Shown here one piece after another: positions 5,348 through 61,552 of a stretch of DNA of 64,000 nucleotides. A program made the position numbers and the translations under genes. The notes beneath the pieces were generated by a model. That model ran no database searches, was not told where the DNA came from, and worked only from the letters and a program-made list of their open reading frames with translations. Source of the DNA: Candidatus Daviesbacteria bacterium RIFCSPLOWO2_01_FULL_39_23. Lineage in GTDB: Bacteria > Patescibacteriota > Microgenomatia > Daviesbacterales > UBA10151. The stretch spans positions 1,464 to 65,463 of the forward strand of contig MFDN01000014.1 in the NCBI GenBank assembly GCA_001776935.1, written 5' to 3'. Numbering within the stretch: position 1 is the first letter of the stretch; each line of letters starts with the position of its first letter.

Positions 5348-6330
5348 TCTTTTTGATTAGCATAATAGATACCTTTGGTGTGTTGCCCATAGTACATAAA
5401 CCATGTGCCGTTTATTTTTGCGAGCGTTGGATCGGCAGGTGGGTTAGGTGGAAATTTGGTCATTGGGTTTTTGTTATTCGTAAAGTCGAAAACCGGTTGG
5501 GAAAAAGAACCATCTTTGTAAATCATATAGAAAACCCCGGCATAGCTCCAAAAGTAAACTCTAAGCTCCACTTGTCCTGAGGAATCCCATTTTACCCACT
5601 CTGCACCATCAGCCGCCCCAAGTAATGTCTCATTTCTTGAATCAATTGCCAACCCTTTCTTTTCAAATGTTAATCCGTCTTTGGAAGTAGCCCAAAAATA
5701 TACATGTGTGTCTTTGTTGGGAAGTTTTTCGCTGGTCTTATAAGGTTCATTAATTGTGCCGCGATAAAGCATAATGTAATTATCATCATCTAATCGAATG
5801 GTTCCTTGAGCACCTACATTTTCTAAATTAAATCCTGGCTCATTCTTATCAATTCTTACACCTGGTTCATCAGTCCAATTTAATCCGTCAGTTGAAATAG
5901 CACTTTTTATAACACCTGCATTTTGAAAATACATTCGCCATCGGCCATCAGGCAACTTAACAATGTCTGGAAAAGTAGCGAAAGTCTTTCTAATTCCGCT
6001 TTCTTTTTCCCAATTTATCCCGTCTTTTGAAACAGATGAATATACTTCCAACTTATTTCCGGGAACTTCAGGCTCAACAGAATAATATATTCGATATTGA
6101 CCGTTTTCAAGATCAACTACCTCGGCATCAGCATATCGACCTGCAATTATTATTCCTTTTTCTTGCCATTTAGACCCTACTTGTTTTACTTGTTCTGATT
6201 TTTGGTTTTGAAGACTTGGGGTTTGGACATCGCTTTTGGTTTTCAAAAACCGAAAAGAAGCAATAATTGCTATTATCACAATCACTGCAACCAAAATTAT
6301 TATGAGGGGAGCAGAACCTTTTTCTTTCAC
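5344..6330 (-). CDS. BNR/Asp-box repeat protein, membrane-anchored (paralog of 2285..3391)
   Basis: 328 aa with an N-terminal TM helix. Asp-boxes SKDGINWEKE, STDGLNWTDE and SKDGLTFEKK are present. Confidence 0.55.
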   Translation of the reverse strand: MKEKGSAPLIIILVAVIVIIAIIASFRFLKTKSDVQTPSLQNQKSEQVKQVGSKWQEKGIIIAGRYADAEVVDLENGQYRIYYSVEPEVPGNKLEVYSSVSKDGINWEKESGIRKTFATFPDIVKLPDGRWRMYFQNAGVIKSAISTDGLNWTDEPGVRIDKNEPGFNLENVGAQGTIRLDDDNYIMLYRGTINEPYKTSEKLPNKDTHVYFWATSKDGLTFEKKGLAIDSRNETLLGAADGAEWVKWDSSGQVELRVYFWSYAGVFYMIYKDGSFSQPVFDFTNNKNPMTKFPPNPPADPTLAKINGTWFMYYGQHTKGIYYANQKE

Positions 6331-6651
6331 AACTTTAGTATAGCACTTTGATTTATACCTTATCTAATGTTGCATGAGGAAGGAGATGATGAGGATTTGA
6401 AGAAGATACAAGTATTTGTTTACCAGTTATGTTGTGGAATCATGCAACACTTTTATGGGGACAATTGGGAAGTGGATTTTGACGAACTGGATTTGAAAAA
6501 TGAATAAGTTCTTGCTTCGCAATAAAGAAGACTGATTTGACAATCTAATCATGAGTTCGAATCTCGCTGGGGTTGTATGTTTTAAGACTATTTTAAACTA
6601 ATTTTCCTGACAATTTCGAGGCTAAAAGCCTTTAAAAACACAAATATCATT

Positions 6652-6726
<75 letters not shown>

Positions 6727-6798
6727 GCTCGCCATCGCTACGCTCAGGCGTTAGCGGGCGAGCCCATCTAACTTGCGTATGATGACTAATCGGATAAT

Positions 6799-7041
6799 CT
6801 ATATTCTATCTTTCAAAAACTTTCTTCCAAATCCAGTTTTAAAATACTTTTCCCTCTTAATAGCTTTTTCTTTTGAAATACCGCCTTCAAAATAAACTAT
6901 TTCTAAAGGTCGCCTATTCTTAGTTGACAATACACCACCATCATTATGTAATTTTACTCTTTCTCCCAGATTAGATGTAAAGCCTACATAATACTTTCCA
7001 TCTTTTTTACTCTGTAACACATAAGTGTAATAAAATTCCAT
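6799..7041 (-). CDS. GIY-YIG nuclease superfamily protein (small stand-alone)
   Basis: 80 aa. YVLQSKKDGKYYVGFTSNLGERVKLHN matches the GIY-x10-YIG core with the conserved R and N. It sits next to the tRNA. Confidence 0.75.
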   Translation of the reverse strand: MEFYYTYVLQSKKDGKYYVGFTSNLGERVKLHNDGGVLSTKNRRPLEIVYFEGGISKEKAIKREKYFKTGFGRKFLKDRI

Positions 7042-7162
7042 AATACACTTATGCTTAATTATAGCCGTACACTATAATTGTCGCAAGCTCAAATTATACT
7101 TTAACTGGTGCATAATGTTCAACGATGCGATGATTAACGGGAAAAGTTGAATTTGCTGAAGA

Positions 7163-7648
7163 TTATCTTTGAATTTGAGCTGCTTTTTCTTTTCGGATTT
7201 TATTGATTGTATCTAATAGTATGTCTACATCAAATGGTTTTGCAAGGAAACGCTCGACTGCTATACCTTTGGTTTCGCAATAAGCTGAAGCTACTTCTGA
7301 GGGAATTAATGTCGTCGTAACAATTAAGGAGGGGCGATAAGTTTCATCATGTTGAAATTGTTCCCCAGCCATTTTCATAATATCCGGTCCCTTTCCTCCC
7401 AAAAGATTAAATTCAGCGATAAAAAGATCCGGACGAAAACCAGCAGCTAAAACTTTTCGTGCAATTCCAAAAGACGGTGTCCATATATGTTTTACAGTGG
7501 GTAAATCACTTTTATATGAACCATCTCTCGGAAGACCAATTCCCCGAATTAAAAATACACACATTTGTCCCATTGTGGCGTCAGCTTCTAAATGAAGAAT
7601 GTTAAAAGCGCTTTTTTGATTAATTACTTTTGTTTCAGGACATACCAT
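7163..7648 (-). CDS. CheY-like receiver-domain protein (divergent acidic pocket)
   Basis: 161 aa. PDLFIAEFNLLGGKGPDIMKMAG ... PSLIVTTTLIPSE ... ERFLAKPFDVDILLDTI follows the receiver alpha/beta pattern (phospho-Asp region, T, KPF). The N-terminal DD pair is replaced by HLEAD. Confidence 0.5.
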   Translation of the reverse strand: MVCPETKVINQKSAFNILHLEADATMGQMCVFLIRGIGLPRDGSYKSDLPTVKHIWTPSFGIARKVLAAGFRPDLFIAEFNLLGGKGPDIMKMAGEQFQHDETYRPSLIVTTTLIPSEVASAYCETKGIAVERFLAKPFDVDILLDTINKIRKEKAAQIQR

Positions 7649-7698
7649 CTTTTAAGTTGGTTAGTAATCTGGTGAGATTATAATCTATATTATTCCAT

Positions 7699-7727
7699 TT
7701 GACAACATCAAACGTACACTCTATTAT
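7699..7727 (+). promoter_or_regulatory. Sigma70-type promoter TTGACA-17-TATTAT; the TSS is predicted at the ATG of the 7736 gene (leaderless)
   Basis: -35 TTGACA at 7699-7704, a 17-nt spacer, -10 TATTAT at 7722-7727. The ATG lies 9 nt downstream. Confidence 0.5.
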
Positions 7728-7735
7728 ACGAGCCT

Positions 7736-8983
7736 ATGATGGAATTAGAGCAGCGCCTTGCTACATTTAAAAAACTCCAAAAACTAGAGGCAGGCTTGGA
7801 CAAGATTGTCCGCCTGACAGAAAATATTGGAAGCACCCCCATTGTTTCTTCTTTAGATTTAAGTCGTTTTGACGAAAATAATCCTGCGCAAACTGAGGAT
7901 TTGCTAAAGACTGCCATTAAGGCCGGAATTGTGATAGAAAGATTAAATGTTAAGGCTAAACCAATCATAGAAGGAAAGATTAGAGAAATTAAAGGTGGAA
8001 CTGAAGGAAAAAGAATGAGTAGCTTGTTTGATGAAGCTGTTAATGCATTAAACCAAAGCAGCCTCGTTCCGGCAAGAATTGTTGGAAAGGCGGCAAGATC
8101 TGTATTAGTCTACAATACACCAAGAAATTCCAATGGGACTCCCGAGGAAAGGGTTTTTACTCAAGATGGTACTCTCACTAAAACAGAAGGAGCAATACTT
8201 GCAATAGCTATTGCAGAAGCTTCACTGAAACCTGAAGCAAAAAAAATATTTACCTTAGACAGCAAGTTTTCTGGATTTTTTGGTAAATTATGCAGTTCCC
8301 TGCCTCAAAAAGGGTCCGGCGAAATGAGCGTCTCCTCTTATAATGAAGCTAAAAGGGGTATTTTAAATAAGGCTGCTTTAATGGTGGCAGATCCGCAAAA
8401 TAATCATGTAGCACGTGAGGTTAAGTTGTTGTTTGATTGGATAAATAGTTGTACGGACCAAAAGGATGTTTTTTATGAAGCTATATTAGCAGTGGATGAT
8501 TGTTCAGATGCAACTGCCGTAATAGACTTAAGAAGTAAATTTCGGAGTGTTATGCAAGCTCGGTTTGATGAAAAATTCGCGAGAGATTTAGTAGAAGTAA
8601 CCAGAGAGGGAGAAGAAGAATTAAAAAAACATAAAGAATTGGAGGAGGCAAGGAAATTAAAGGAAGCCAAAAGACTAGCAGAAGCCGAAATAAAAAAGCA
8701 ACAAGAGAAAGATAGAAATCAACTGGCAGCAAAGATGGAAAAAATATTGGTAGGTTTGTGGTCAAGAGAGGCTCCTTACATAGAAATGTTAAATGAGGCA
8801 GTAGCAATAACACCTGGATTAGAGGGGAAAAAGAGGCTAGGATTAGTTGAAAAGGCCCTTGCAATAGCTAATTTAGAGCACAGACAAGCAACAGAGTTGA
8901 ACTTTACTGAAGAAGAGATGAAAGTGGTAAAGGATGTTGCTTCAGATATTTATATGAAAAGGATTAAAGAACCTAAAAAATAA
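7736..8983 (+). CDS. Hypothetical protein with a C-terminal coiled-coil
   Basis: 415 aa. The K/E-rich heptad segment KHKELEEARKLKEAKRLAEAEIKKQQEKDR is the only feature I see; no enzymatic motifs. Confidence 0.5.
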   Translation: MMELEQRLATFKKLQKLEAGLDKIVRLTENIGSTPIVSSLDLSRFDENNPAQTEDLLKTAIKAGIVIERLNVKAKPIIEGKIREIKGGTEGKRMSSLFDEAVNALNQSSLVPARIVGKAARSVLVYNTPRNSNGTPEERVFTQDGTLTKTEGAILAIAIAEASLKPEAKKIFTLDSKFSGFFGKLCSSLPQKGSGEMSVSSYNEAKRGILNKAALMVADPQNNHVAREVKLLFDWINSCTDQKDVFYEAILAVDDCSDATAVIDLRSKFRSVMQARFDEKFARDLVEVTREGEEELKKHKELEEARKLKEAKRLAEAEIKKQQEKDRNQLAAKMEKILVGLWSREAPYIEMLNEAVAITPGLEGKKRLGLVEKALAIANLEHRQATELNFTEEEMKVVKDVASDIYMKRIKEPKK

Positions 8984-9048
8984 CAGCTTACTATCCTCTT
9001 ACTTTCCTCTTAATAATCCTATAACAAAAGTAACCTACAATATATATA

Positions 9049-9744
9049 ATGAAGTTTAATGAACTAATCTTAATATTCGGCATTATTGCCATACTCTTTT
9101 TTATGGCAGTTATTGCATATTTTATTATTCCTCACAAAACTGCCAATACAGTTGCTCCTGCTGCTACGCCGGCTTCAAGAGTTTTGGGCGAGACAGTGTC
9201 TGATTTAATTTTGTATACAAACGCAAAGCATAAAATTCAATTTGAATACCCAAAAATCCTTTTTATTGCTCTTGAAACAGAAGATGCTTTAAAGCTTACC
9301 GAGAAAGATTGCCGGGACTCAGAAGATATTTCCTGCGGAGCAGCTAATTCTTTTTTCTTTAGAGGGGAATTGGCGCGAGATTTACCGCTTGAAGATTGGA
9401 TAAAAGAAAATCTGTTTAAAAAAAGCAATTTCTTTCCCAGTCCTTCGGGTTCGGGAGTTGAGGGAATAGTTGACGGGGGAGAGTATTGCTACTCCCGGGC
9501 AAAGCAGGAGCCTGTTGGGGTAGCAGGCCAACAAGCAACTTCTTTTACTTTCAGCAAAGACCAGCTGGCTGAACCGGGAAAATGCGCTTTAAATAAAAGT
9601 TTTAACCTTCTGGATCCGGATGTGAGCGAGGAAATATACTTTAAACACGGCTCTTCTATTATCAGGTTTGAACTAAATTATTCAAAAGATTCGGGTTTGG
9701 ATAAAATATTTCATCAGATTTTAACAACCGCAAAAGCAAATTAA
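9049..9744 (+). CDS. Hypothetical secreted/membrane-anchored protein
   Basis: 231 aa with an N-terminal TM helix (LILIFGIIAILFFMAVIAYFII). Confidence 0.45.
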   Translation: MKFNELILIFGIIAILFFMAVIAYFIIPHKTANTVAPAATPASRVLGETVSDLILYTNAKHKIQFEYPKILFIALETEDALKLTEKDCRDSEDISCGAANSFFFRGELARDLPLEDWIKENLFKKSNFFPSPSGSGVEGIVDGGEYCYSRAKQEPVGVAGQQATSFTFSKDQLAEPGKCALNKSFNLLDPDVSEEIYFKHGSSIIRFELNYSKDSGLDKIFHQILTTAKAN

Positions 9745-9760
9745 GTTATATAATTGAAAT

Positions 9761-10711
9761 ATGAACTGGGTTGATTTTGTCATTGTTGGCGCTTTAATAT
9801 TTTTCGCCCTTACTGCAATAGGAAGGTCATTTTTGTCTGAGCTTTTAGATTTGATAAGCTTTTTATTGGCGGGGTTTTTGTCTTTCCTTTACTATAACCT
9901 GCCGGCAAAATTTTTTGAGAGTCAGTTTCAAATTCCACACGGACTATCTTTAGTACTGGGATTTATGGTAGTCTGGTTTTTTTCCGAGATTTTTTTCTTT
10001 CTTATGGTCAGACTTTTACTGCCTGTGCTTCCTGCTGTTAAGATCCCCGGGTCAAAAATTTTATCTATGGTTCCCGCTGCCCTGCGGGGCTTAGTATTTA
10101 TCAGTCTGGCTTTGGTTTTAACTTCAACTTTTCCTATCCAGCCTGTTATCAAGAAGTCTGTACTGGAATCAGTTTTAGGAAGCAAGATCCTAAAATATGC
10201 CTATAATCTGGAGGCTCCTGTTAAAAGCGTGTTCGGAGGTGTAGCAAACGATTCCTTAACATTTTTAACCATAAAGCCTAAAACAGATGAAAGGGTTAAT
10301 TTAGGCTTTCAAACATCACAACTAACAGCAGATCCGGTGAACGAAGCAGCAATGACAGGATTGGTAAACAAAGAAAGATCACTCCGCGGTTTGAATATTT
10401 TAGTTTCCGATCAAAAGCTCCGGGATGTGGCAAGATTGCATTCGGAAGATATGTTTAAGCGGGGTTATTTTTCCCACTTTTCGCCTGAGGAAGCAACTGT
10501 TGCAGACAGGGTGCAAAAAGCAGGGGTGAATTTTTTGGTTGTGGGAGAAAATCTGGCTTATGCCCCGGGTTTAGAACTTGCCCACAAAGGGCTTATGAAT
10601 TCAGAAGGGCACAGGGTAAATATTTTATCCGAAGACTATCATAAAATCGGTATTGGAGTTATGGATGGAGGAGTATATGGCATGATGTTCACCCAGGTTT
10701 TCAGCAACTGA
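9761..10711 (+). CDS. CvpA-like membrane domain fused to a CAP/SCP/PR-1 (YkwD-like) domain
   Basis: The N-terminus has 4 TM helices typical of the colicin V production protein family. The C-terminus GYFSHFSPEE...GENLAY...GLMNSEGHRVNILSEDYHKIGIGV matches the CAP-domain signature (HRxNIL...GxG). Confidence 0.65.
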   Translation: MNWVDFVIVGALIFFALTAIGRSFLSELLDLISFLLAGFLSFLYYNLPAKFFESQFQIPHGLSLVLGFMVVWFFSEIFFFLMVRLLLPVLPAVKIPGSKILSMVPAALRGLVFISLALVLTSTFPIQPVIKKSVLESVLGSKILKYAYNLEAPVKSVFGGVANDSLTFLTIKPKTDERVNLGFQTSQLTADPVNEAAMTGLVNKERSLRGLNILVSDQKLRDVARLHSEDMFKRGYFSHFSPEEATVADRVQKAGVNFLVVGENLAYAPGLELAHKGLMNSEGHRVNILSEDYHKIGIGVMDGGVYGMMFTQVFSN

Positions 10712-10754
10712 TTCTGTTAAGGTTACACCTTGGTCAAGGTGTAACCTTGGTAAA

Positions 10755-13498: not shown

Positions 13499-14185
13499 TT
13501 ATTGAAGGTGAAATAATAAAATATATTCCCCTTTGGGTCCACCGGCTGGCGTATTTAAATCCTCAAGCCACTTGCTGATAGCTTGTTTCTTAACAGACTG
13601 ATGGATTTTAGTTAGTTCCTTGGCTAAAATAACCTCAATATCCCCAAAAATTTCCTTCATGTCAGATAAATCAGTACGGAGTTTATAAGGAGAAACAAAA
13701 AAAATAACAGTAGCATTTAGCTTCCCACATTCGATGTGGGAACGCAGATTTTTCAGTAAGTTTAGTCTTTGGCCGCTTTTTTCAGGCGGGTAGCCTAAAA
13801 ACATAAATTTATCAGGAGGAAGTCCGGATAAAGTTAATGAGGTGATTACAGAAGATGGGCCCGGGAGGGAGTCAACTTCCAGTCCCAAATTAATGCATTC
13901 CCTTACTAATTTATACCCGGGATCAGATATTAATGGGGTGCCGGCATCAGACACCAAAGCTAAGTTTTGACTGCATTTTAGTCGATCGACAATTATGCGT
14001 ATACTTTGAGCTTCGTTGTAGTCATTTAAAACAAGCAAAGGTTTTTGAATTTGGTAATGATTTAAAAGTTGAGCAGTCCTGCGGGTATCTTCACAAATTA
14101 TTGCGTCAACTTCTTTTAAAGTCTCAAGTGCCCTTAAAGTGATATCTTTTAAATTACCGATAGGTGTTGGAACAATATATAGCAT
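13499..14185 (-). CDS. rsmI: 16S rRNA (cytidine1402-2'-O)-methyltransferase RsmI
   Basis: MLYIVPTPIGNLKDITLRALETLKEVDAIICEDTRRT...LVSDAGTPLISDPG is the tetrapyrrole-methylase / RsmI signature. Confidence 0.85.
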   Translation of the reverse strand: MLYIVPTPIGNLKDITLRALETLKEVDAIICEDTRRTAQLLNHYQIQKPLLVLNDYNEAQSIRIIVDRLKCSQNLALVSDAGTPLISDPGYKLVRECINLGLEVDSLPGPSSVITSLTLSGLPPDKFMFLGYPPEKSGQRLNLLKNLRSHIECGKLNATVIFFVSPYKLRTDLSDMKEIFGDIEVILAKELTKIHQSVKKQAISKWLEDLNTPAGGPKGEYILLFHLQ

Positions 14186-15902: not shown

Positions 15903-18900
15903 ATGGCGGATTTTTTAAACGGCAATAAAATTTTTAATACTTTCAAAGAGCAGGTTTCAATATACCTAAATTCTTACAGTAAGCTTACGTCTCTGTGGTT
16001 GTTACCTTACAAACTTAAAGTAATCTACACACTATTGGAAAAAAATATGTTTAAGTTTTTTGCAAAGAAATCTATTACCCTAATTTCAATATTTTCATTA
16101 TTTATAAATATAATTTCACCTTTGGCTTTAGCCGGTCAAATTTATGCACAGGAAGCTTCCCCTGCTCCGGTTGTGGAAGAAGCCCCGGCTCCCTCTGCTA
16201 ATCCAGGCGAATCGCCAGTCCCAACTACTAATGAAAACACCCCGGCAGAAGCTTCTCCAGCTCCGGAGGTATCACCAACTCCTGAGCCTTCTCCGGTTGT
16301 AAGCCCTGAACCATCCCCTTCGCAGGTTTCAGAACCGGTATTGGAAGAAACTGCTAATGAATCTTCACCGGCAGCTGTTGTAGACCCGACTCCACAGGAG
16401 CAAACTTCTGCCACACCTGTTTGGCAAAATATTGCAGATAAAGAATTTACTACTTCTGAAAATGTAACTTTGGGTAATGAATATACTGCTCCCCAAAACG
16501 ATAAAGTAAAAGTCCAGTTTACAAAATTACCTGACCCTTCGGGAAAACTTACTATTAAAGAAGTAAAACTTACTCCTGAAGAAATGACATCTTTGGGAGC
16601 ATTTTCAGATACAGCCTACGACATCACCTCCACTATGTCTGATAGTACTTTTGAATATGACCTGACCCTGCCTTTACCGCAGGAGGCTCAAAACAAGGAA
16701 GTTGAAGTTAAAGCAGCAGAGACAGAAGAACAAATCTCACAGGCAACAGAAGTAACCGAGCAAAAGGAAAAGAAAACCCAGGATACTATTACTATAAAAG
16801 GCTTAAACCACTTTACAGTCTTTGTTATCACCACCCCAAGCCCTGATACTACTCAGAGAGTACTTATTAATGAAATACTGCCAAACCCGACTGCGGGTGC
16901 TGAATGGGTAGAATTTTTCAACAATGGCACTACCTCCGTAAACTTGGGGGCAGGTACAGGTTGGACAATTACAAACTCAGTAGGCAGTATACAGTCTCTT
17001 AGTGCACTGGGTACTATTCCTGCAGCAGGACGAGTAGTATTTGATGCTCCAGCAGGCTGGCTTTCCAATACTGCTCCGGAAACAATTACCATATCCAATG
17101 AGCTGGGCACAGTAGTTGATACTGTTACCGTATCTTTGATTGCTCCGGGTTTTGCAATTGACCACTATCCTTTAGCCGGAGAATCTGTTGGCAGAAGAAC
17201 AGACGGAGTTAACGAATGGTTGATTTTCACTACCCCGTCCAAAGGAACTGCCAATGTAGTACCGGTAGTTGGTGGGGCCGGACGGTTAGCTGAAGTTGGG
17301 CCTGTTGCCCCTGCAGGAGGACTTAGGGCAGGTTCCCCTAACTGGTACAGGGATAACAATAATTTAACACTTGAGCTGATGGAAGCAGCTGATGCAAACG
17401 GAATCTCCGCTCCTGTTGAGGCTGGCAATCCGTTTTCAGCCCAGATTGGTTTTGGAGCTGAAGGCTTCTGGTGGTCAGCTGAAGCTGATTTAACAACTTC
17501 TGCAGGCAGCGCGCTTTTAGTACAGGCAATTGAAGCAGCTTTTGCCGGTGAGTCAGCAGTTGACGGTGAACAGTCTTCTTTTGCCAGGATTAGGATTAGA
17601 GTTGATGTTGGCGAGCCGGGTACCTATATTGTTACTTATCCTTATGGTCAAAAGACCTATACTGTTACAACCCCTGGAGTTAGAGCTATTAATGATACTG
17701 TAGATATTGGCTGTTTTGCCCAGCCAGGCGTGAGCTGTGACCAGGTCGGTCAGCCTAACTTCTCCACACTGCTAAATGGCGGAATTGGGCCATTTTTAAC
17801 CTGGGATACTTTTAATTCGACCGGACCTTCTGACCCTGCTTTAAATATTGGCGGCAGAAGGTATGTGGGAACTGTTGCTACTCCGCATACAGTTAAAGGT
17901 TCCCCGACCGGTAATAATTTCTTCAGGATTCAGGGTCCGAATATCGGAGGCCCGGGGATCAATGTCATACAAACAAACCTTTTTACAGTCACCGGAAGAT
18001 TGGCAGGAGCAGGAGCTCCCGTTATAACCCTGCACGGTGCTAACCCTGTTAATGTATTGCAGAATGCGCCTTATACTGCAACAGAAGATGCCGGAGCCAC
18101 AGCTTTGGATGATGTGGATGGTAATTTGACAGCGAATATTCAAATAACCGGATTGCCGGTTAATACCGCCACAATAGGCGCTAAAACAGTAACTTATACA
18201 GTTACAGACAGTGCGGGCAATACTGCCACAGCCACAAGGACAGTAAATGTTGTAGAAACATCGGCAGTTGATGGAGTTGCCCCTGTAATAACCATTGCCG
18301 GTAATAACCCTGCCACGGTAGTAGCAGGAACTGCCTATATTGATGCAGGAGCTACAGCTTTGGATAATGTTGACGGCGCAGTGGCTGTATCTACAACAGG
18401 TTTGCCGGTTAATACATCAGTAGTTGGTTCTGCTACGGTTACATATACTGCAACTGATGCGGCCGGCAATACTGCAAGCCTTGACAGAATCGTCAATATA
18501 GTGGCAGATAATGTTGCCCCGACTATTACCATTACAGGTTCAAACCCGGTGTTTGTCTTCATCGGTGGAACCTATACGGATGCCGGTGCTACTTGCACAG
18601 ACAATGTAGACGGAGATTGTACTGCCTTAATAATCACTTCCGGTGCTGTGATTGATACTTCTGCTGCAGGTTCTCATACAGTTAATTATGCTTATACAGA
18701 CGCTGCCGGCAATAACACCAGCGTTAACAGGACTGTCAACGTAGCTGCTACCCTGCCCGCCGGATTGGTTGAAGTCGGACCTGTTGCTCCTGCAGGAGGG
18801 TTGGGGGCAGGTTTCCCGGAGTGGTACAAAGATTCAAACGCTTTAATCTTAGATTTAATGGAAGCGGCTGATCCTCACAGCATTTCCGCTCCTGTTGAAG

Positions 18901-21803
18901 CAGGTAATGCTTTCTCTGAAACTCTTGGCTTTGGAGCTGAAGGCTTTTGGTGGGCGACTGATGCTGATATGGCTACCTCAGGCCCTAATGGCGCAATTTT
19001 AGTCCAGGCAGTTGAAGCAGCTTTTGCAGGCGAATCAGCAGTTGACGGCGAACAGTCTGCCTTTGCCCGGGTCAGGATCAGAATAGATGTCGGAGAGCCG
19101 GGCACATACACTGTCACCTATCCGTTTGGAACAAAAACATATGATGTATTAACTGTAGGGCCAGGGTTTGAAATTAATGATACTTCTGATATCGGCTGCT
19201 TTGCCCAACCAGGTATAAGCTGTGACCAGGCAGGCCAGCCAAACTTCTCGACCGTATTAAGCGGTGAAATAGGACCATTCCTGACCTGGGACACCTTTGA
19301 CCCAAACCCGGTTCTTTCTGATCCTTTGCTGACACATTCTGTTACTAACAGGAGATATGTAGGCGACGGTATAACACCGCACATTGTTAAAGGCAGCCCG
19401 ACCGGCAACAACTTCTTCAGGATTGAAGGACCAAATATCGGAGGGGCTGGAGTTAACTCAGTCCAGACAAATTTGTTTACAGTAGTCGGCAGACTGGATA
19501 ATGCTGTTAATCCTAATGCGCCTGTTATCACCGTAGTCGGCGCAAACCCTGTCACTGTTTTGCTGAATGATCCTTACACTGCAGTACAAGATGCCGGCGC
19601 CACAGCCACAGATGTGCCTGATGGTGATTTGACTGCTTCTATTATAGAAAGCGGACTTCCGGTTGACACTTCCACTGTTGGAGCTAAAACTGTCACATAT
19701 ACAGTCACAGATGCTAACGGCAATACTGTAAGCGCCACAAGAACAATTAATGTGGTGGCTGCTCTTCCTGCTGATGTGACGCCTCCGGTTATTACTGTGC
19801 TGGGTGCAAATCCGATCACAGTTACAGTCGGATCAACCTATGCTGCGGCAGAAGATGCCGGTGCCACAGCTTTTGATGCTGTAGATGGTGTGGTAGTTGT
19901 AGCAGAATCGGGGTTGCCTGTTGATACCTCAACAGAAGGCGCCAAAACAGTCACATACACTTCCACAGACGCTGCCGGCAATACGGCTACTATCACAAGG
20001 ACTGTTAATGTGACATCTGCGCCTGTTACCACCGGTTCCATAAGGATCATAAAAGATACCGTATTAAATAACGCCCAGGATTTTGAATTCAGGTTAAGGC
20101 TTGGTGCGTTTGACCAAACTTTTTTCCTTGATGATGATTCTGATAATACGCTTCCTAATGTGCGCGAATTTGAAGGCCTGGCTACAGGAGCCTACAACCT
20201 TCAGGAGATCGTAAACAGTAATTGGAACCTAATTTCCATAAGCTGCAATGATCCTGATTCCGGTACAACCTTTGACTTAGGTGCATCCACCGCCACAATT
20301 GACCTTGATGCCGGTGAAAGAGTCACCTGTGAATTTACCAATGCCCCGCGCCAGTCAATTGCCGGTGAAAAGTTTTCTGACCAGAATAATAACGGGGTTA
20401 AAGAGGCAGGAGAACCTGGACTTTCCGGCTGGACAATTTATCTTGATACTAATGATAACGGTGTATTGGACGGCGGAGAGACTTCCGTAGTCACTGATTC
20501 AGAAGGAGATTACCAGTTCCTGAGTGTTAGCAATGGGGTGGTAAATGTGCGTGAGGTTACTCAAAGCAACTGGCAGCCAAAAACTCCATCCGGCGGGAAA
20601 TATGTCTTAACAATGACTTCAAACTCCAGTTTCATCAGTAAGGACTTTGGTAATGCCCAAATACTCACAATACCGGGTGCAAGCGGCAGATTTTTCTCAA
20701 CCGGCGGCCCTGTAAACTCCACCACCTCAGTTGTAGCTGATGATGATAATACAATTTCTGTGGCAGGCAATGGTGGCACTACTACTATTCTTATTCCTGA
20801 AGGTACTGTTATCACCAAATCAGACGGCGGCACTATTGATTTCAGCCAGCTCACATCTGCAGTATTAGCTGCTTCAGCTGTCTCAGGCTTGGGTAGCGGA
20901 GTGGTAGTTGATGGAGTCCTGCAATGGGGTATTCCAAACTTAGGTTTATTATTCAGCCAGCCAATTACCATTAATTTCTTTATCGGCACAGCTTTCAACG
21001 GCCAAACCTTAAATATTCAAAGGTCAATCTCAGGCAGCGGAGGCTGGACTACTGACGGCATTGTTGCTCCTGCTACCTGTACAGTATCAGCCGGAGTCTG
21101 CAGCTTCCAAACCACTAAAGCATCGTTCTTTGCATCTACACATAATGTTCCTGCTGACAATAATACAGGCAGCGGAACTTCTGGCAACAATAACAGCACT
21201 ACCTCAGCCCCTACCTGTAATGATGTCAAACCAGGTTCTGCACCAACTCTTTTGTCAGCTGTTGCAACCGGAGCCAATGAAGTGACCTTAACATGGAGCA
21301 AAGCTGCTGACCCGGTCACCGGATACATGATAGCTTTTGGACTTACCTCAGGAGATCTAAGATTTGGCGATCCAAACCAGGGCAGCAAAAATGATACTCA
21401 AAGAGTTATCAAAAACCTGTCCGGAGGCACCACATACTTCTTCAGAGTCAAAGCTGCAAACGGCTGCAATGCAAGCGACTATTCAAACGAGATAGCTGTA
21501 AAAGCAACCGGGCAGGCATTATCCACTAATATTCCTGCAGGGTTTCAGGAAGGGGTCTTAGGAGCACAAACTGATCAGGGCAGCACCGGTACCGGAGGGG
21601 CAATTGATTATCCGTCTCCTACCCCAAGCGTGGATGATGTATTAGGTACAGATTCGCAGAATGTGGGAGTAGGACAAGATCAAGCTCAAGGTCAAACAGC
21701 CGGAGCAAGATCCAATACCCCCCTGGCTGTGGGAGTAGCCTTAGTTTTGCTCACAATTCTGGGTGTTGGATATACATTATACAGGCGCAATAAACTTCAA
21801 TAA
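15903..21803 (+). CDS. Giant cell-surface protein with signal peptide, Pro-rich linker, Lamin-tail domain, tandem Ig-like (DUF5011/HYR-type) repeats, SdrD-B/CnaB-like and FN3 domains, and a C-terminal TM anchor
   Basis: 1966 aa. The likely true start is the ATG at 16047 (MFKFFAKKSITLISIFSLFINIISPLALA signal peptide). An LTD motif (VLINEILPNPTAGAEWVEFFNNG) is present. There are at least 7 repeats of the type ANPVxVxxNAPYTAxEDAGATAxDxVDGxLTA...GAKTVTYTVTDxAGNTA. An internal duplication of about 470 aa (LAEVGPVAPAGGL...GTYxVTYP) is visible. The C-terminus is PLAVGVALVLLTILGVGYTLYRRNKLQ. Confidence 0.8.
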   Translation: MADFLNGNKIFNTFKEQVSIYLNSYSKLTSLWLLPYKLKVIYTLLEKNMFKFFAKKSITLISIFSLFINIISPLALAGQIYAQEASPAPVVEEAPAPSANPGESPVPTTNENTPAEASPAPEVSPTPEPSPVVSPEPSPSQVSEPVLEETANESSPAAVVDPTPQEQTSATPVWQNIADKEFTTSENVTLGNEYTAPQNDKVKVQFTKLPDPSGKLTIKEVKLTPEEMTSLGAFSDTAYDITSTMSDSTFEYDLTLPLPQEAQNKEVEVKAAETEEQISQATEVTEQKEKKTQDTITIKGLNHFTVFVITTPSPDTTQRVLINEILPNPTAGAEWVEFFNNGTTSVNLGAGTGWTITNSVGSIQSLSALGTIPAAGRVVFDAPAGWLSNTAPETITISNELGTVVDTVTVSLIAPGFAIDHYPLAGESVGRRTDGVNEWLIFTTPSKGTANVVPVVGGAGRLAEVGPVAPAGGLRAGSPNWYRDNNNLTLELMEAADANGISAPVEAGNPFSAQIGFGAEGFWWSAEADLTTSAGSALLVQAIEAAFAGESAVDGEQSSFARIRIRVDVGEPGTYIVTYPYGQKTYTVTTPGVRAINDTVDIGCFAQPGVSCDQVGQPNFSTLLNGGIGPFLTWDTFNSTGPSDPALNIGGRRYVGTVATPHTVKGSPTGNNFFRIQGPNIGGPGINVIQTNLFTVTGRLAGAGAPVITLHGANPVNVLQNAPYTATEDAGATALDDVDGNLTANIQITGLPVNTATIGAKTVTYTVTDSAGNTATATRTVNVVETSAVDGVAPVITIAGNNPATVVAGTAYIDAGATALDNVDGAVAVSTTGLPVNTSVVGSATVTYTATDAAGNTASLDRIVNIVADNVAPTITITGSNPVFVFIGGTYTDAGATCTDNVDGDCTALIITSGAVIDTSAAGSHTVNYAYTDAAGNNTSVNRTVNVAATLPAGLVEVGPVAPAGGLGAGFPEWYKDSNALILDLMEAADPHSISAPVEAGNAFSETLGFGAEGFWWATDADMATSGPNGAILVQAVEAAFAGESAVDGEQSAFARVRIRIDVGEPGTYTVTYPFGTKTYDVLTVGPGFEINDTSDIGCFAQPGISCDQAGQPNFSTVLSGEIGPFLTWDTFDPNPVLSDPLLTHSVTNRRYVGDGITPHIVKGSPTGNNFFRIEGPNIGGAGVNSVQTNLFTVVGRLDNAVNPNAPVITVVGANPVTVLLNDPYTAVQDAGATATDVPDGDLTASIIESGLPVDTSTVGAKTVTYTVTDANGNTVSATRTINVVAALPADVTPPVITVLGANPITVTVGSTYAAAEDAGATAFDAVDGVVVVAESGLPVDTSTEGAKTVTYTSTDAAGNTATITRTVNVTSAPVTTGSIRIIKDTVLNNAQDFEFRLRLGAFDQTFFLDDDSDNTLPNVREFEGLATGAYNLQEIVNSNWNLISISCNDPDSGTTFDLGASTATIDLDAGERVTCEFTNAPRQSIAGEKFSDQNNNGVKEAGEPGLSGWTIYLDTNDNGVLDGGETSVVTDSEGDYQFLSVSNGVVNVREVTQSNWQPKTPSGGKYVLTMTSNSSFISKDFGNAQILTIPGASGRFFSTGGPVNSTTSVVADDDNTISVAGNGGTTTILIPEGTVITKSDGGTIDFSQLTSAVLAASAVSGLGSGVVVDGVLQWGIPNLGLLFSQPITINFFIGTAFNGQTLNIQRSISGSGGWTTDGIVAPATCTVSAGVCSFQTTKASFFASTHNVPADNNTGSGTSGNNNSTTSAPTCNDVKPGSAPTLLSAVATGANEVTLTWSKAADPVTGYMIAFGLTSGDLRFGDPNQGSKNDTQRVIKNLSGGTTYFFRVKAANGCNASDYSNEIAVKATGQALSTNIPAGFQEGVLGAQTDQGSTGTGGAIDYPSPTPSVDDVLGTDSQNVGVGQDQAQGQTAGARSNTPLAVGVALVLLTILGVGYTLYRRNKLQ

Positions 21804-24064: not shown

Positions 24065-24130
24065 TTAATGCAAGTATACCTCTTTAAAAAGATTGCAAAA
24101 TAGGTTAAAATGGAACCTCATTTTTCGGGA
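24065..24130 (+). repeat. About 65-bp conserved promoter-like element, copy 1 (AGTATAyCCyCTTTAAAAG-TTGCAAAATAGGkTAAAATGGAACCTCATTTTTCGGGA)
   Basis: Near-identical to 29208..29270 (about 55/62 identities). It contains TTTAAA-17-TAAAAT and the palindrome AAAATG-N6-CATTTT. Confidence 0.6.
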
Positions 24131-29207: not shown

Positions 29208-29270
29208 TCAGTATATACCCCTTTAAAAGTTTTGCAAAATAGGGTAAAATGGAACCTCATTTTTCGGGAA
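29208..29270 (+). repeat. About 65-bp conserved promoter-like element, copy 2, upstream of uvrA
   Basis: See copy 1. The uvrA ATG lies about 50 nt downstream. Confidence 0.6.
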
Positions 29271-51685: not shown

Positions 51686-51724
51686 CCCACCTCGGAGGTA
51701 GGAGTACAATGACACGTAGGGTTT
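51686..51724. repeat. REP-like palindromic element, copy 1 (CCCACCTCGGAGGTAGGAGTAC...ACGTAGGGTTT)
   Basis: It is 20/21 identical over its core to the copy at 56839. It lies between the convergent sortase and rpe genes. Confidence 0.65.
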
Positions 51725-56175: not shown

Positions 56176-56214
56176 TCCTACCTCCGAGGTAGAAATGAGG
56201 CTATACCTAGGGTT
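56176..56214. repeat. REP-like palindromic element, copy 2 (CCTACCTCCGAGGTAG...ATACCTAGGGTTT)
   Basis: It lies immediately downstream of the stop of the RAYT-like gene. Its core is the inverted version of the copy-1 core. Confidence 0.6.
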
Positions 56215-56217
56215 TAT

Positions 56218-56631
56218 CTATTCCTCCAAAGCTAAGTGTTTTATTAATTCTAATTTTTGAGCATAGTCAACTTGGTCTAAAACAAACTCTTCATACGTAT
56301 GTTCGCTTTTGAACATAGAAAGAACAAAATCTTTGGAACAGGCTTTATCAAACTGCGAACTAATATAATTCTGATAAGAGGACCAGGGATACTCTTTCAA
56401 ATCCTTTACAAGGAAGGAGGCGATGGGATTTAGGTGAATATATCGTGAGACATGAATTAATTGTTCATCAGATTCAATCCTCAGAGCCTTAAATTGACCT
56501 TGTAGCAGAGGCCCTACCCGACTATATCTGGTATTAAAATATTTTGTATAACTGTTAGATATCTTGCTGATAAATTCAGAAATACCATTATCCTGAATCT
56601 GCCGAATTAAAAAATGATAGTGGTTGGGCAT
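56218..56631 (-). mobile_element. Truncated IS200/RAYT-like HUH (Y1) transposase gene
   Basis: MPNHYHFLI (HuH motif) ... RVGPLLQGQFKALRIESDEQLIHVSRYIHLNPI (the conserved RYIxxNP end of Y1 transposases). The upstream in-frame sequence stays open for about 45 codons (…KKIIEILCYCL-MPNHYHF) with no ATG, GTG or TTG, so the N-terminus looks lost or degenerate. Confidence 0.6.
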
Positions 56632-56815
56632 TAGGCAGTAACAAAGTATTTCTATAATTTTTTTATTTTTCTCAAACTTAAAATCCTTAAATCTATTAAG
56701 CTGAGAAAATTGAGGTTTAGGACCTTGATACTGATAATAGTAATAAATACATGATAAATCTGATCGTTTACTAGGGGAGTTTTACGATAGGGCATTAATA
56801 AGACTAAATCACATA

Positions 56816-56876
56816 AAACCCTACGTGTCAATATGTTTTCACCTCGGAGGTAGGAGTGCGTTGATACCTAGGGTTT
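56816..56876. repeat. REP-like palindromic element, copy 3 with extended stem (AAAACCCTACG...CACCTCGGAGGTAGGAGTGC...ATACCTAGGGTTTT)
   Basis: It lies upstream of the RAYT-like ORF and at the 3' end of the HAD gene. The outer arms AAAACCCTA / TAGGGTTTT are complementary. Confidence 0.6.
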
Positions 56877-58247: not shown

Positions 58248-59264
58248 ATGGATAACCTTGACCCAAAAAATGTGCTTGGTTCAACAGAAATGTTTGCTTT
58301 GCAGTGCAAACAAATTTGGGAAGAAGCCAAAAAATTAGAATTTCCCTCTGAATATCAAAATATTGAAAATATTATAGTTTGCGGTATGGGTGGTTCTGCT
58401 TACGGGGGTTATATAATTTCTTCCCTTTTTAAGGATAAATTAAAAGTCCCGATTGTTTCAAACAATGATTATACAATTCCTGCATTTGCCGGTGAAAACA
58501 CATTAGTTGTTCTTTCCAGCTATTCAGGATCAACAGAAGAAGTTTTATCCTGCGCCCAAAAAGCCAAAGAAGCAGGCTGTAAACTCACAGCCCTAACAGG
58601 CGGAGGAAAGCTTGAAGAATTTCTCAAGGACGCAGGTGCTCCTGCTTTGATTTTTGAACCAAAACACAATCCTTCAGGCCAACCCAGGCTGGGGACAGGG
58701 TATATGGTATTGGGAATGATAGCCCTTTTAAATAGGTCAGGCATACTTTCAGTTTCAGATAAGGAAGTTGCAAAAGCCATTTCTGAACTTGAAACTGATA
58801 CTGAGAATATCAAAAGTAAAGCAAAAGAAATGTCGGAAAAAATCAAAGGCTTTATTCCGGTGATTTTTTCAGCAGAATTTTTAGGAGGCAATAATCACAT
58901 AATAAGAAACCAATTTAATGAAACCTCAAAGAGTTTTTCTGCTTTTGCACCATTGCCGGAATTAAACCATCATCTTTTGGAAGGCTTTAAAAATCCGGAA
59001 GATAAAAAGCTGTTTGTATTATTTATTTCCTCAGACCTATATTCGGATAAATTAAAAAAGAGGGTTGAGTTAACCAAAGATGTAATAGAAAAAAATAATG
59101 TTTCTTTTGATGAATACAAGCCGGCCGGGTCTTCCAAACTTGCCCAAATGTTAAACACTTTAGCTTTCGGAGGCTACTTAACCCTGTATCTAGCCTTTTC
59201 TTATGGCCTGGACCCAAGCCTTATCCCCTGGGTAGACTATTTCAAAGCCCAAATGGAAAAATGA
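58248..59264 (+). CDS. Bifunctional phosphoglucose/phosphomannose isomerase (SIS domain, archaeal type)
   Basis: IVCGMGGSAYGGYII (SIS phosphosugar binding) and a second SIS-like half are present. Length is 338 aa. Confidence 0.7.
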   Translation: MDNLDPKNVLGSTEMFALQCKQIWEEAKKLEFPSEYQNIENIIVCGMGGSAYGGYIISSLFKDKLKVPIVSNNDYTIPAFAGENTLVVLSSYSGSTEEVLSCAQKAKEAGCKLTALTGGGKLEEFLKDAGAPALIFEPKHNPSGQPRLGTGYMVLGMIALLNRSGILSVSDKEVAKAISELETDTENIKSKAKEMSEKIKGFIPVIFSAEFLGGNNHIIRNQFNETSKSFSAFAPLPELNHHLLEGFKNPEDKKLFVLFISSDLYSDKLKKRVELTKDVIEKNNVSFDEYKPAGSSKLAQMLNTLAFGGYLTLYLAFSYGLDPSLIPWVDYFKAQMEK

Positions 59265-59565
59265 TTTTATGGAAATACCTGAAAAAGGATCCGATATAAG
59301 ATTTACCAAAACTGCAGGTAATGTTAAAAAGGTTAATATCCCTGCCTATGGTGATGTATATGTTTGTCCATATCCTCCATCTGACTTTCCAGATACGCAA
59401 AAAGCAGCCAAGGCAATAATATACGCTAAAAAGGGAATAAAACGAAAGTAACAACCTTACGAACATTACTACTACGACCGTATGTTTAATGTGAACAGTA
59501 AGATAGTTTCGTATATCTATCCTTGGGGTGGCAAGCTAAACCTTCACTGAGTCCTCACATCTGAG

Positions 59566-59586
59566 TTCCCACATCGGATGTGGGAA
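59566..59586. repeat. Palindrome TTCCCACAT-CGG-ATGTGGGAA flanked by AAGCTAAAC direct repeats
   Basis: A perfect 9-bp-arm hairpin lies 8 nt downstream of the permease gene stop. A related copy sits inside rsmI at 13722..13742. Confidence 0.55.
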
Positions 59587-59593
59587 GCTAAAC

Positions 59594-60784
59594 TTATTCA
59601 TATCGCAAAGCAGTAATTGGATCCAGTTTGGCAGCGCGGATGGCTGGGGCTACTCCAAAAATTATTCCCACAATGGCTGAAAATCCAAAAGATAAAAGCA
59701 CCGACCACCAGGGGACTGTGGTTGTAAAAAACCGGCCAATGATAAGGGAAATCCCAAAGCCTAAAACAATCCCGATTATCCCTCCTAGTCCAGATAAAGT
59801 GATTGCCTCAATTAAAAACTGGTTCCTGATATCAGATGGCTTTGCTCCCACAGCTTTCCTGAGTCCAATCTCCCTTGTCCTCTCCGTAACAGAAACAAGC
59901 ATAATATTCATAATTCCAATACCTCCTACAATAAGGGATATGGCTGCTATTCCTCCTAAAGCCAGGCTTAAAACTCCCGTAATTTGAGAAATTGTAGATA
60001 AAGCCTGTTCCTGGGACTGAACAGTAAACTCATCTTCTGATAATCTCCTTTTTAATATTGCAGTAGCTTTATCCTGTACGATTTTTACCTCATCCGAATC
60101 ATTTGCGGAAATATAGATAGTATTAAGCCTGTCTATCCCGAATTGCCTTTGAGCTGTCTGAAAAGGTACATATATCGAATTATCCTGGTCAATCCCAAAA
60201 ATTGATCCCCGCGGTTCCAGCACACCGATAACCTTATATTTTATGGCGGCAACATCAATTATCTGATTTAAAGAAGTTCCTTCTCCGAAAAGGGTTGTTT
60301 TAGCACTTTGTCCGATAACCGCCACTTTTCTGGCTGATTGCTGTTCTGAAGAATTAAAAAATCTGCCCTGAGTAAGTTTTATGGAAATAATTTTAGGATA
60401 ATTTGATTCAACACCAAAAACTGCTGCGCCTTTGTCATTTTTATTACCGAATTTTAAAGTGGCGTTTCTCTGGATAGCCGCAGAAACATCTGCCTCACCT
60501 GCAAGTTTGCTTCTTAAATTAACTGCGTCACTGTAAATTAAGCGGTTTGCCTGCACACCACCCGGAGACCTGGCCCCGCCAATTCTACCCGGAATCACAA
60601 ATAATAAATTAGATCCTAGCCCCTGAATTTGTGCTGTAATAAAAGTCTGCAATCCTGTAACCATGGAAATGAGTAATATCACGGACATCACGCCGATAAC
60701 TATCCCGAGCATGGTTAAAAACGACCTTAACTTATTGGCAAGAATGGCTTTAAAAGCTGATGATGTGATTTCTAAAATATCCAT
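59594..60784 (-). CDS. ABC transporter permease, MacB/FtsX family
   Basis: An N-terminal TM helix, a large periplasmic MacB-like domain and a C-terminal FtsX 3-TM bundle. Length is 396 aa. Confidence 0.85.
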   Translation of the reverse strand: MDILEITSSAFKAILANKLRSFLTMLGIVIGVMSVILLISMVTGLQTFITAQIQGLGSNLLFVIPGRIGGARSPGGVQANRLIYSDAVNLRSKLAGEADVSAAIQRNATLKFGNKNDKGAAVFGVESNYPKIISIKLTQGRFFNSSEQQSARKVAVIGQSAKTTLFGEGTSLNQIIDVAAIKYKVIGVLEPRGSIFGIDQDNSIYVPFQTAQRQFGIDRLNTIYISANDSDEVKIVQDKATAILKRRLSEDEFTVQSQEQALSTISQITGVLSLALGGIAAISLIVGGIGIMNIMLVSVTERTREIGLRKAVGAKPSDIRNQFLIEAITLSGLGGIIGIVLGFGISLIIGRFFTTTVPWWSVLLSFGFSAIVGIIFGVAPAIRAAKLDPITALRYE

Positions 60785-61510: not shown

Positions 61511-61552
61511 TTGTGTTAAGGTCGCACCTTGACAAAGGTGCGACCTTGGTAA

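Follow-up and report, generated by a model that had tools for sequence, protein, structure and literature searches.

The 64,000-nucleotide (nt) stretch of Candidatus Daviesbacteria bacterium RIFCSPLOWO2_01_FULL_39_23 DNA analysed here (contig MFDN01000014.1, positions 1,464 to 65,463; hereafter the window) carries two copies of a 29-nt hairpin unit, which we call type A, one in frame inside rsmI and the other between convergent genes. The two copies are probably singleton members of a family of hairpins that resemble repetitive extragenic palindromic (REP) sequences and that are tied, in Microgenomates of the Candidate Phyla Radiation (CPR), to a family of enzymes resembling REP-associated tyrosine transposases (RAYTs). 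We infer that the hairpin is mobile and spreads by transposition. The copies and the genes that they touch are as follows.

13718..13746, minus strand: type-A REP-like unit, copy 1, inside rsmI and in frame (stem-loop 13722-13742; tag GCTA 13718-13721; likeness to copy 2 spans 13715-13749)
13499..14185, minus strand: host gene rsmI (16S rRNA C1402 2'-O-methyltransferase, TP_methylase), 228 aa
59562..59590, plus strand: type-A REP-like unit, copy 2, intergenic with convergent genes on either side (stem-loop 59566-59586; extended likeness 59559-59593)
59594..60784, minus strand: MacB_PCD/FtsX ABC-transporter permease gene, neighbour of copy 2

The type-A unit and its distribution

Copy 1 reads TGCG-TTCCCACAT-CGA-ATGTGGGAA-GCTA on the minus strand and copy 2 reads TGAG-TTCCCACAT-CGG-ATGTGGGAA-GCTA on the plus strand, and the 29-nt unit common to both is YRYR-TTCCCACAT-NNN-ATGTGGGAA-GCTA. 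A first-pass annotation had already noticed a palindrome at both sites, and the pattern TTCCCACAT-N1-5-ATGTGGGAA indeed has two exact matches (13722-13742 and 59566-59586), where none is expected in the window (100 shuffles). It had described the arms as near-perfect and begun copy 1 one base early. The arms of both copies are in fact perfect 9-bp complements around a 3-nt loop, and TAGC occupies 13718-13721. The likeness between the copies exceeds the palindrome. The 29-mer GTTCCCACATCGGATGTGGGAAGCTAAAC, which is exact at 59565-59593 (plus), recurs at 13715-13743 (minus) with one mismatch in the loop and one at the final base (27 of 29 positions identical), and ATCTG-N-G stands 5' of both copies. 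As single-stranded DNA, the window hairpins fold with energies of -8.1 to -9.4 kcal/mol (z-scores of -4.0 to -4.9 versus shuffles). Both are among the four longest of the 14 perfect hairpins of at least 8 bp in the window, where shuffles contain 7.3.

Because one family stood in coding and non-coding DNA alike, the first-pass annotation took the palindrome for a mobile element rather than the product of a coding constraint, and it proposed a genome-wide pattern search with comparison of the flanks. Exact matches to TTCCCACAT-N3-ATGTGGGAAGC in one genome per species (185,579 species) occur at 16 loci in about 12 Microgenomates assemblies, comprising Daviesbacteria, Levybacteria and relatives, and their flanks are unrelated. 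Non-homologous loci of this kind in other genomes support the idea of a mobile element. Each locus holds one copy, and each of these species-representative genomes has 1-3 exact copies. Conservation nevertheless extends to positions on which the pattern placed no constraint. The bases 3' of the GC are T in 19/19 and A in 18/19 sequences, and the Y-R-C-R ahead of the stem is kept in 18/19, 19/19, 14/19 and 18/19. The unit consists of a 4-nt YRYR lead, a 9-nt arm, a 3-nt loop, the other 9-nt arm and GCTA, or about 29 nt in all, and its tag is asymmetric and unpaired.

Relative to the fixed tag, the loop triplets of the window copies, L001-L016 and L102 form three reverse-complement pairs (CGG/CCG, CGA/TCG and GGA/TCC), which suggests that the loop is flipped by recombination between the arms or that copying is blind to its orientation. 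Copies in the same genome have lead, loop and tail variants in common, as seen in the window pair, in JACPLG01 (L005, L006, L009 and L109) and in CAYQAW01 (L007 and L010). These common variants fit amplification inside a genome. A partial arm duplication, CCnCACAT, lies 5 nt upstream of the complete unit in the window (59545-59565) and in L009, and ATGTGGGAAGCTA occurs twice at 5045-5070 of L010 beside a complete unit. These partial duplications, with the tandem hairpins of L103 described below, may record nested or repeated insertion. The assemblies of L001, L007, L008, L010, L013 and L015 carry 'uncultured Gammaproteobacteria' in their record titles. These titles look like mislabels, given that the RecG, GT2 and transposase genes of the assemblies share 65-85% identity with Daviesbacteria genes.

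A 29-nt length and the layout GTTCCC... stem-loop ...GCTAAAC, which we take to be similar to those of type I-E and I-F repeats, could mark the unit as a solitary clustered regularly interspaced short palindromic repeat (CRISPR). This explanation is effectively refuted. The window has no array, a single copy stands at each of the 16 loci, 2.9 million viral contigs gave 0 matches, the listed neighbourhoods have no cas genes, and no Rfam family, the CRISPR-DR families included, matches the hairpin at gathering thresholds or at E<=1. The Rfam result likewise leads us to reject a known RNA family.

Among about 13 intergenic copies, 8 are located 0-14 nt from a stop codon. Copy 2 lies between the permease gene and a convergent 60-aa open reading frame (ORF; 59269..59451, plus). 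Its unit ends 3 nt from the permease stop codon (59594-59596, minus) and its tail AAAC abuts that codon, giving the junction TAA-GTT-TAGC-hairpin on the permease strand. In L015 the tag of the unit itself provides the TAA stop codon of a Y1_Tnp ORF. A scan of 59200-59700 called no intrinsic terminator, and neither strand has a T-run there; we therefore reject a canonical terminator role.

Other copies are translated. Besides copy 1, in-frame copies are read as A-S-H-I-G-C-G-N in a two-domain GT2 glycosyltransferase (L007), as L-P-T-S-N-V-G in RecG (L013) and as S-F-P-H-G-M-W-E in peptide deformylase, encoded by def (L012). The OTCase gene of L109 holds a further copy. The copies in the GT2, recG and def genes occupy three reading frames and both orientations, which again favours a mobile element. 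The RecG site has a different hairpin, TTCCCACT-CGTCA-AGTGGGAA, in L015 and a 7-nt tandem repeat in L011, and the GT2 site of L003 has two relics in the opposite orientation.

RAYT-like transposase genes bracketed by hairpins

A Y1_Tnp gene is located within 500 nt of the palindrome at 3 of the 16 loci, all of which were retrieved by the palindrome alone (L015, L011 and L004; tblastn). The L015 ORF that ends in the tag encodes such a Y1_Tnp protein (Pfam Y1_Tnp, 39 bits; cut-off 23). Two genomes were picked by protein similarity alone: L109, a Levybacteria genome that also has three solitary copies, and L110, a 1.1-Mb Daviesbacteria contig. In L015, L011, L109 and L110, TTCCCAC-type hairpins occur within 60 nt of both ends of the transposase gene. 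This arrangement is the signature of REPs and strengthens the case for mobility made by the first-pass annotation.

The 3' hairpin is an exact type-A unit in two of these four genomes (L015 and L011), where it stands at the stop codon or 6 nt past it. Upstream of the ATG of the same two genes, or overlapping it, is a type-B hairpin, TTCCCACT-loop-AGTGGGAA, with a loop of 5-7 nt. The hairpins flanking the L110 gene carry TAGC tags, and CGTAG-like tails are found only on type-B hairpins that adjoin a transposase gene. One transposase gene was seen per locus, and in both L015 and L011 it is syntenic with recG, 3.2-3.5 kb away. Remoter RAYT-like genes are bracketed by palindromes of their own, TTCCACCC.TTG.GGGTGGAA with inverted GGCTA tags in L107 and CCGATCC-S-GGATCGG in L004.

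We compared 120 homologues of the transposase. All of them have the HUH motif and 117 have YIHxN. The hairpins extend into the proteins themselves: the C-terminus xPT(SD/LD/FH/WN)VG is the hairpin translated in frame in 13/120, and the N-terminus is translated from the upstream hairpin in 13/120. The family exceeds 4,000 proteins at E<=1e-10, and the source label for them is only 'transposase'. The best fold match of an AlphaFold model in the PDB is 4ER8, the E. coli RAYT in complex with a REP hairpin (E 3.8e-4, TM 0.56), followed by the IS608/IS200 TnpA structures (E 3e-3 to 6e-3). A profile of the transposase found nothing in the PDB at E<=0.01, and the single sequence gave only a marginal ISDra2 match, so that 4ER8 emerged from the fold comparison alone.

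An internal TTCCCAC...GTGGGAA hairpin is also present in the transposase gene, where it codes for FPLxxWE just past the catalytic YIHRN in 78/120 homologues (5988-6008 in L015, 7573-7593 in L011 and 10438 in L110). This segment substitutes for the matching segment of other RAYT-like proteins and does not lengthen it.

If the palindrome were a double-stranded operator for a dimeric protein, such as a regulator or a partition or condensation factor, then its half-sites would co-vary with drifting specificity. The unit is a perfect 21-bp odd palindrome when its loop is CGG or CCG, and arm co-variation of the kind described below is also expected under a changing regulator. However, a conserved asymmetric 4-nt tag and a 4-nt lead are unexpected for a symmetric site, and most copies are at gene 3' ends or within ORFs, not at promoters, with no promoter-like site nearby. 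An operator would also leave the association with Y1 transposases unexplained, and we regard it as very improbable. Roles like those of DNA uptake sequences or parS were set aside on the grounds of 2 copies per 64 kb and the asymmetric tag, with no dedicated test.

Hairpin and peptide at the rsmI site

Copy 1 adds 6-7 codons to RsmI in a loop ahead of the beta-strand TVIFF. The first-pass annotation had read the palindrome as RSHIECGKL within RsmI and given the E. coli protein a shorter segment, EAEPR. Translation of the ORF at 13499..14185 (minus) gives this same peptide, R-S-H-I-E-C-G-K-L, and the alignment with E. coli RsmI (PDB 5HW4) bears out the comparison, opening a 6-residue gap opposite 'shiecg' (LKAIEAE------PRTLIFY).

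Across 120 RsmI homologues of 66-78% identity, the loop has three states. It is short in some, including the closest homologue (P0008, 78% identity), it holds unrelated filler peptides such as REHNENLK in others, and it reads x-H/N-L/I/P-x-G/C-x-K-L-N in 38/120. The rsmI genes of L104 and L020 are without exactly 7 codons (CGT TCC CAC ATC GAA TGT GGG), as is that of the closest homologue, and the L020 junction keeps AAG CTA. Other stems occupy the site elsewhere: TCCCACCT.GGA.AGGTGGTA in L100, TACACCT.CGA.AGGTGTA in L101, AACCT.CGG.AGGTT in L106 and ACACCT.TAA.AGGTGT in L107, each with AAGCTA after it. In L103 the site holds a tandem pair of hairpins whose loops are flipped.

In an alignment of six rsmI hairpin sequences, 81.5% of cells are paired and 4/9 pairs are altered on both sides. 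None of 500 shuffles reaches this pairing score, and no slid register is as good. The peptides follow the same rule. H, which requires C at stem position 5, occurs with a G-initial codon on the other side in 32/32 proteins, and N, which places A there, occurs with a T-initial codon in 6/6. The hairpin rather than the peptide is thus conserved at this site, because the stem changes are compensated and the peptide variation obeys base pairing. The alignment is equally compatible with stems that mutated where they stood and with stems swapped for another family member.

These results bear directly on whether the repeat could be a coincidence or could reflect a constraint on coding for a peptide motif of RsmI. 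The loop peptide x-H-L/I-x-G/C-x-K-L-N does recur in 38/120 homologues. Against this, no chance matches are expected in shuffles, the same DNA is non-coding at other sites and stands in other genes and other frames, and peptide variation tracks base pairing and not amino-acid similarity (H/N versus G-/T-initial codons, 38/38). The shuffles, the non-coding copies, the other frames and the pairing rule refute both ideas, and we attach practically no weight to them. The first-pass annotation had named, as grounds against its own reading, that only two copies exist and that related genomes have the same RsmI peptide without palindromic DNA. This is not what is seen, since related rsmI genes with the peptide do carry palindromic DNA.

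A neighbour-joining tree of the 120 homologues places the window protein beside the hairpin-less P0008 and apart from the type-A bearers P0006 and P0029, but its resolution is too low to tell from the loop types whether the hairpin was maintained vertically or inserted repeatedly. A metagenome scan for RsmI relatives returned close relatives at 2/80 loci, its patterns being too general.

The most likely mechanism for the probable REP-like family is carried over from IS200/IS605 TnpA and the E. coli RAYT, for which the biochemistry is established (Messing 2012, PMC3479197; Bertels and Rainey 2011, PMC3116915). The transposase would recognise the hairpin and adjoining tag in single-stranded DNA, cut beside the tag and join copies in at new tagged sites. 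The hairpin would end up beside GCTA/TAGC because the enzyme would read the adjacent tetranucleotide and cleave and join there. Copies could persist where they do little harm, either just past stop codons or as in-frame surface loops of proteins, and those past stop codons may also stabilise mRNA 3' ends, which is a possible secondary role. The rsmI copy would then be an intragenic insertion of about 21 nt beside a pre-existing AAG-CTA (Lys-Leu). The 'empty' junction of L020, CTN followed by AAGCTA, fits insertion beside a pre-existing tag and equally a deletion product. Across Daviesbacteria, the hairpin at the rsmI site would either have been kept or have been renewed repeatedly.

Several observations weigh against a REP/RAYT-like family. 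The sole NCBIfam match of the transposase is NF047646 (REP_Tyr_transpos), and its 36-56 bits fall under the curated cut-off of 80. The AlphaFold model is of moderate quality (pLDDT 73). Two copies per 64-kb window is a low number for a REP family, the type-A copies are all singletons with no doublets of the REPIN kind among those found, and the tag is TAGC, neither GTAG nor CGTC. The window has a single transposase gene, which is degraded and flanked by another hairpin family, D9. The rsmI gene of L102 has an identical 28-nt hairpin though its RsmI protein is only 74% identical, and such sameness of the hairpin is not expected of an insertion in neutral decay. Finally, no empty site was found among strains with an identical RsmI or permease protein (24 contigs per gene, all alike), and near-identical strains thus give no sign of recent movement.

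Some of these points would suit a cis-acting structure selected by the host, such as an mRNA 3'-end stabiliser, an unconventional terminator or a site for an RNA- or single-stranded-DNA-binding protein, to which the transposase link would be secondary. Such a structure might explain the identical L102 hairpin, the compensated stems in other orthologues and the many copies 0-14 nt past stop codons, and the single-copy, syntenic appearance of the RAYT genes agrees with it as well. Its weaknesses are that the hairpin can face either way with respect to transcription and is found in three frames within ORFs, that it has no T-tract, terminator call or Rfam match, and that hairpins bracket the transposase genes. 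In addition, the RecG and GT2 loops hold differing hairpin types or orientations by genome, which repeated insertion fits better. We judge host selection as the primary explanation to be quite unlikely, but it is compatible with a REP origin, and the two are not exclusive since REPs often gain such roles.

A further idea, unlikely though conceivable, is that a domesticated RAYT-like enzyme actively keeps or re-installs hairpins at the same tagged housekeeping sites (rsmI, recG and the glycosyltransferase gene), either by homing to GCTA or through host selection. If true, it would explain both the identical rsmI hairpin at 74% protein identity and the different hairpin types in the same protein loop across genomes.

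Other repeats of the window and likeness to known systems

The degraded transposase gene of the window and the D9 repeats are arranged as follows.

56218..56831, minus strand: degraded Y1 transposase gene, RAYT-like (43% identity with the L015-type transposase)
56179..56215, plus strand: D9 hairpin repeat (CTACCT.CCG.AGGTAG...ACCTAGGGTTT), one flank of the degraded gene
56840..56876, plus strand: D9 hairpin repeat (CACCTCGGAGGTAGG...ACCTAGGGTTT), other flank of the degraded gene
51688..51724, plus strand: D9 hairpin repeat, solitary third copy

The degraded gene retains its HUH motif (NHYHFL) and YIHLNP, and its N-terminal part is gone through deletion and frameshift. Because it is degraded and flanked by the D9 family, it is unsupported as the mobiliser of the type-A hairpin. 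The D9 consensus is CTACCT.CSG.AGGTAG ... ACNTAGGGTTT, and its core also occurs in L003 at 3412.

A third hairpin family, with 13-bp stems, is present at 10712-10753 and 61511-61552. Its two copies differ by a TA to CG change that is compensated on both arms, and they fill exactly the 42-nt spacer from the stop of one gene to the start of the next co-directional gene. The core of this family, ACACCT/AGGTGT, is that of the rsmI-site hairpin of other Daviesbacteria (L101 and L107). The window also contains a 56-nt direct repeat, 91% identical over copies 5.1 kb apart (24075-24130 and 29214-29269; TATACC.CTTTAAAA...GCAAAATAGG.TAAAATGGAACCTCATTTTTCGGGA), and an internal tandem duplication of ~1.5 kb (17286-19756, 72-79% identical) in the gene for a surface protein of ~1,920-1,970 aa with LTD/Ig-like/HYR domains. 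The cumulative GC skew is lowest near 8 kb, where the skew changes sign (window ~6000-10000), which could reflect a replication origin or a mere change in gene orientation.

More broadly, streamlined Microgenomates genomes of ~1 Mb contain several families of hairpins with ties to a large family of RAYT-like transposases, and some hairpins are translated in frame within essential genes, for example rsmI, recG and def. Genome annotation can in this way account for short lineage-specific insertions in conserved proteins and for odd N- and C-terminal extensions of gene calls. The hairpins are also a tractable evolutionary case in which maintenance of REP-like hairpins by selection can be set against repeated site-specific insertion.

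Known REP/RAYT systems come mainly from Proteobacteria and a handful of other phyla. A full-text literature search found no relevant report of REPs or tyrosine transposases for CPR, Patescibacteria or Microgenomates. The super-families of these systems are also said to be treated by Nunvar (2010). The systems, or REPtrons, include GTAG- and CGTC-tagged super-families (Bertels and Rainey 2011, PMC3116915; Di Nocera 2013, PMC3733652). REPs elsewhere are located within 20 bp of ORF 3' ends and provide stop codons, they occur in frame inside repair and RNA-modification genes, they overlap the ends of RAYT genes, and roughly the same site in orthologues can be occupied by different REPs (PMC3733652). 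The behaviours of the type-A unit all have a precedent among these. With 29 nt and a 9-bp stem, it is a palindrome in the 20-40 nt range, one end of which carries an unpaired 4-nt tag. Its copies are mostly no more than 20 bp from ORF 3' ends and sometimes give the stop codon, and some are in frame in repair or RNA-modification genes. Related hairpins flank or overlap both ends of a Y1 HUH gene for which the nearest solved relative is the E. coli RAYT. The differences are the TAGC tag in place of GTAG or CGTC, a perfect stem with a 3-nt loop, a transposase under the NCBIfam RAYT cut-off and a CPR/Microgenomates host. Type A is also present as a few exact copies per ~1-Mb genome, and these are singletons. 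In place of REPIN doublets there are only the partial arm duplications (L010, L009 and window 59545-59565) and the tandem hairpins of L103.

The IS200/IS605 elements (IS608 and ISDra2) likewise have a Y1 HUH gene between related but non-identical left and right subterminal hairpins. The L011 and L015 genes have a type-B hairpin (5-7-nt loop) on the left and a type-A hairpin (3-nt loop) on the right, and the conserved tetranucleotide adjoining the hairpin is comparable to the TTAC target of IS608. However, the gene here looks single-copy and syntenic rather than multi-copy, and it is the solitary hairpin that is dispersed. The protein is also longer, with 215 aa versus about 130-155, and it appears closer to the RAYT model and structure than to IS200/IS608 TnpA (model pLDDT 73).

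Rickettsia palindromic elements (RPEs) reportedly occur in frame in housekeeping protein genes (Ogata et al. 2000). No transposase is known to us for RPEs, in contrast to the hairpins described here, which flank a Y1 transposase gene. RPE-4 and RPE-6 have been equated with CGTC REPs (PMC3733652). Type A resembles RPEs as an in-frame palindromic repeat that supplies a short peptide at a surface site where it is tolerated, in a bacterium with a reduced genome. It is much smaller, since RPE-1 is about 100-150 bp and adds 30-50 residues, whereas the type-A unit adds about 7.

The small dispersed repeats of cyanobacteria, reportedly 21-27 nt long (Elhai et al. 2008), are said to be dispersed palindromes of less than 30 nt that also occur inside other sequences, as type A does. 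They belong to another lineage and have unrelated sequences, and to our knowledge no transposase has been described for them. On these comparisons, the type-A family probably belongs with the REPs, selfish or domesticated DNA of a kind already known, and is not a new kind of system.

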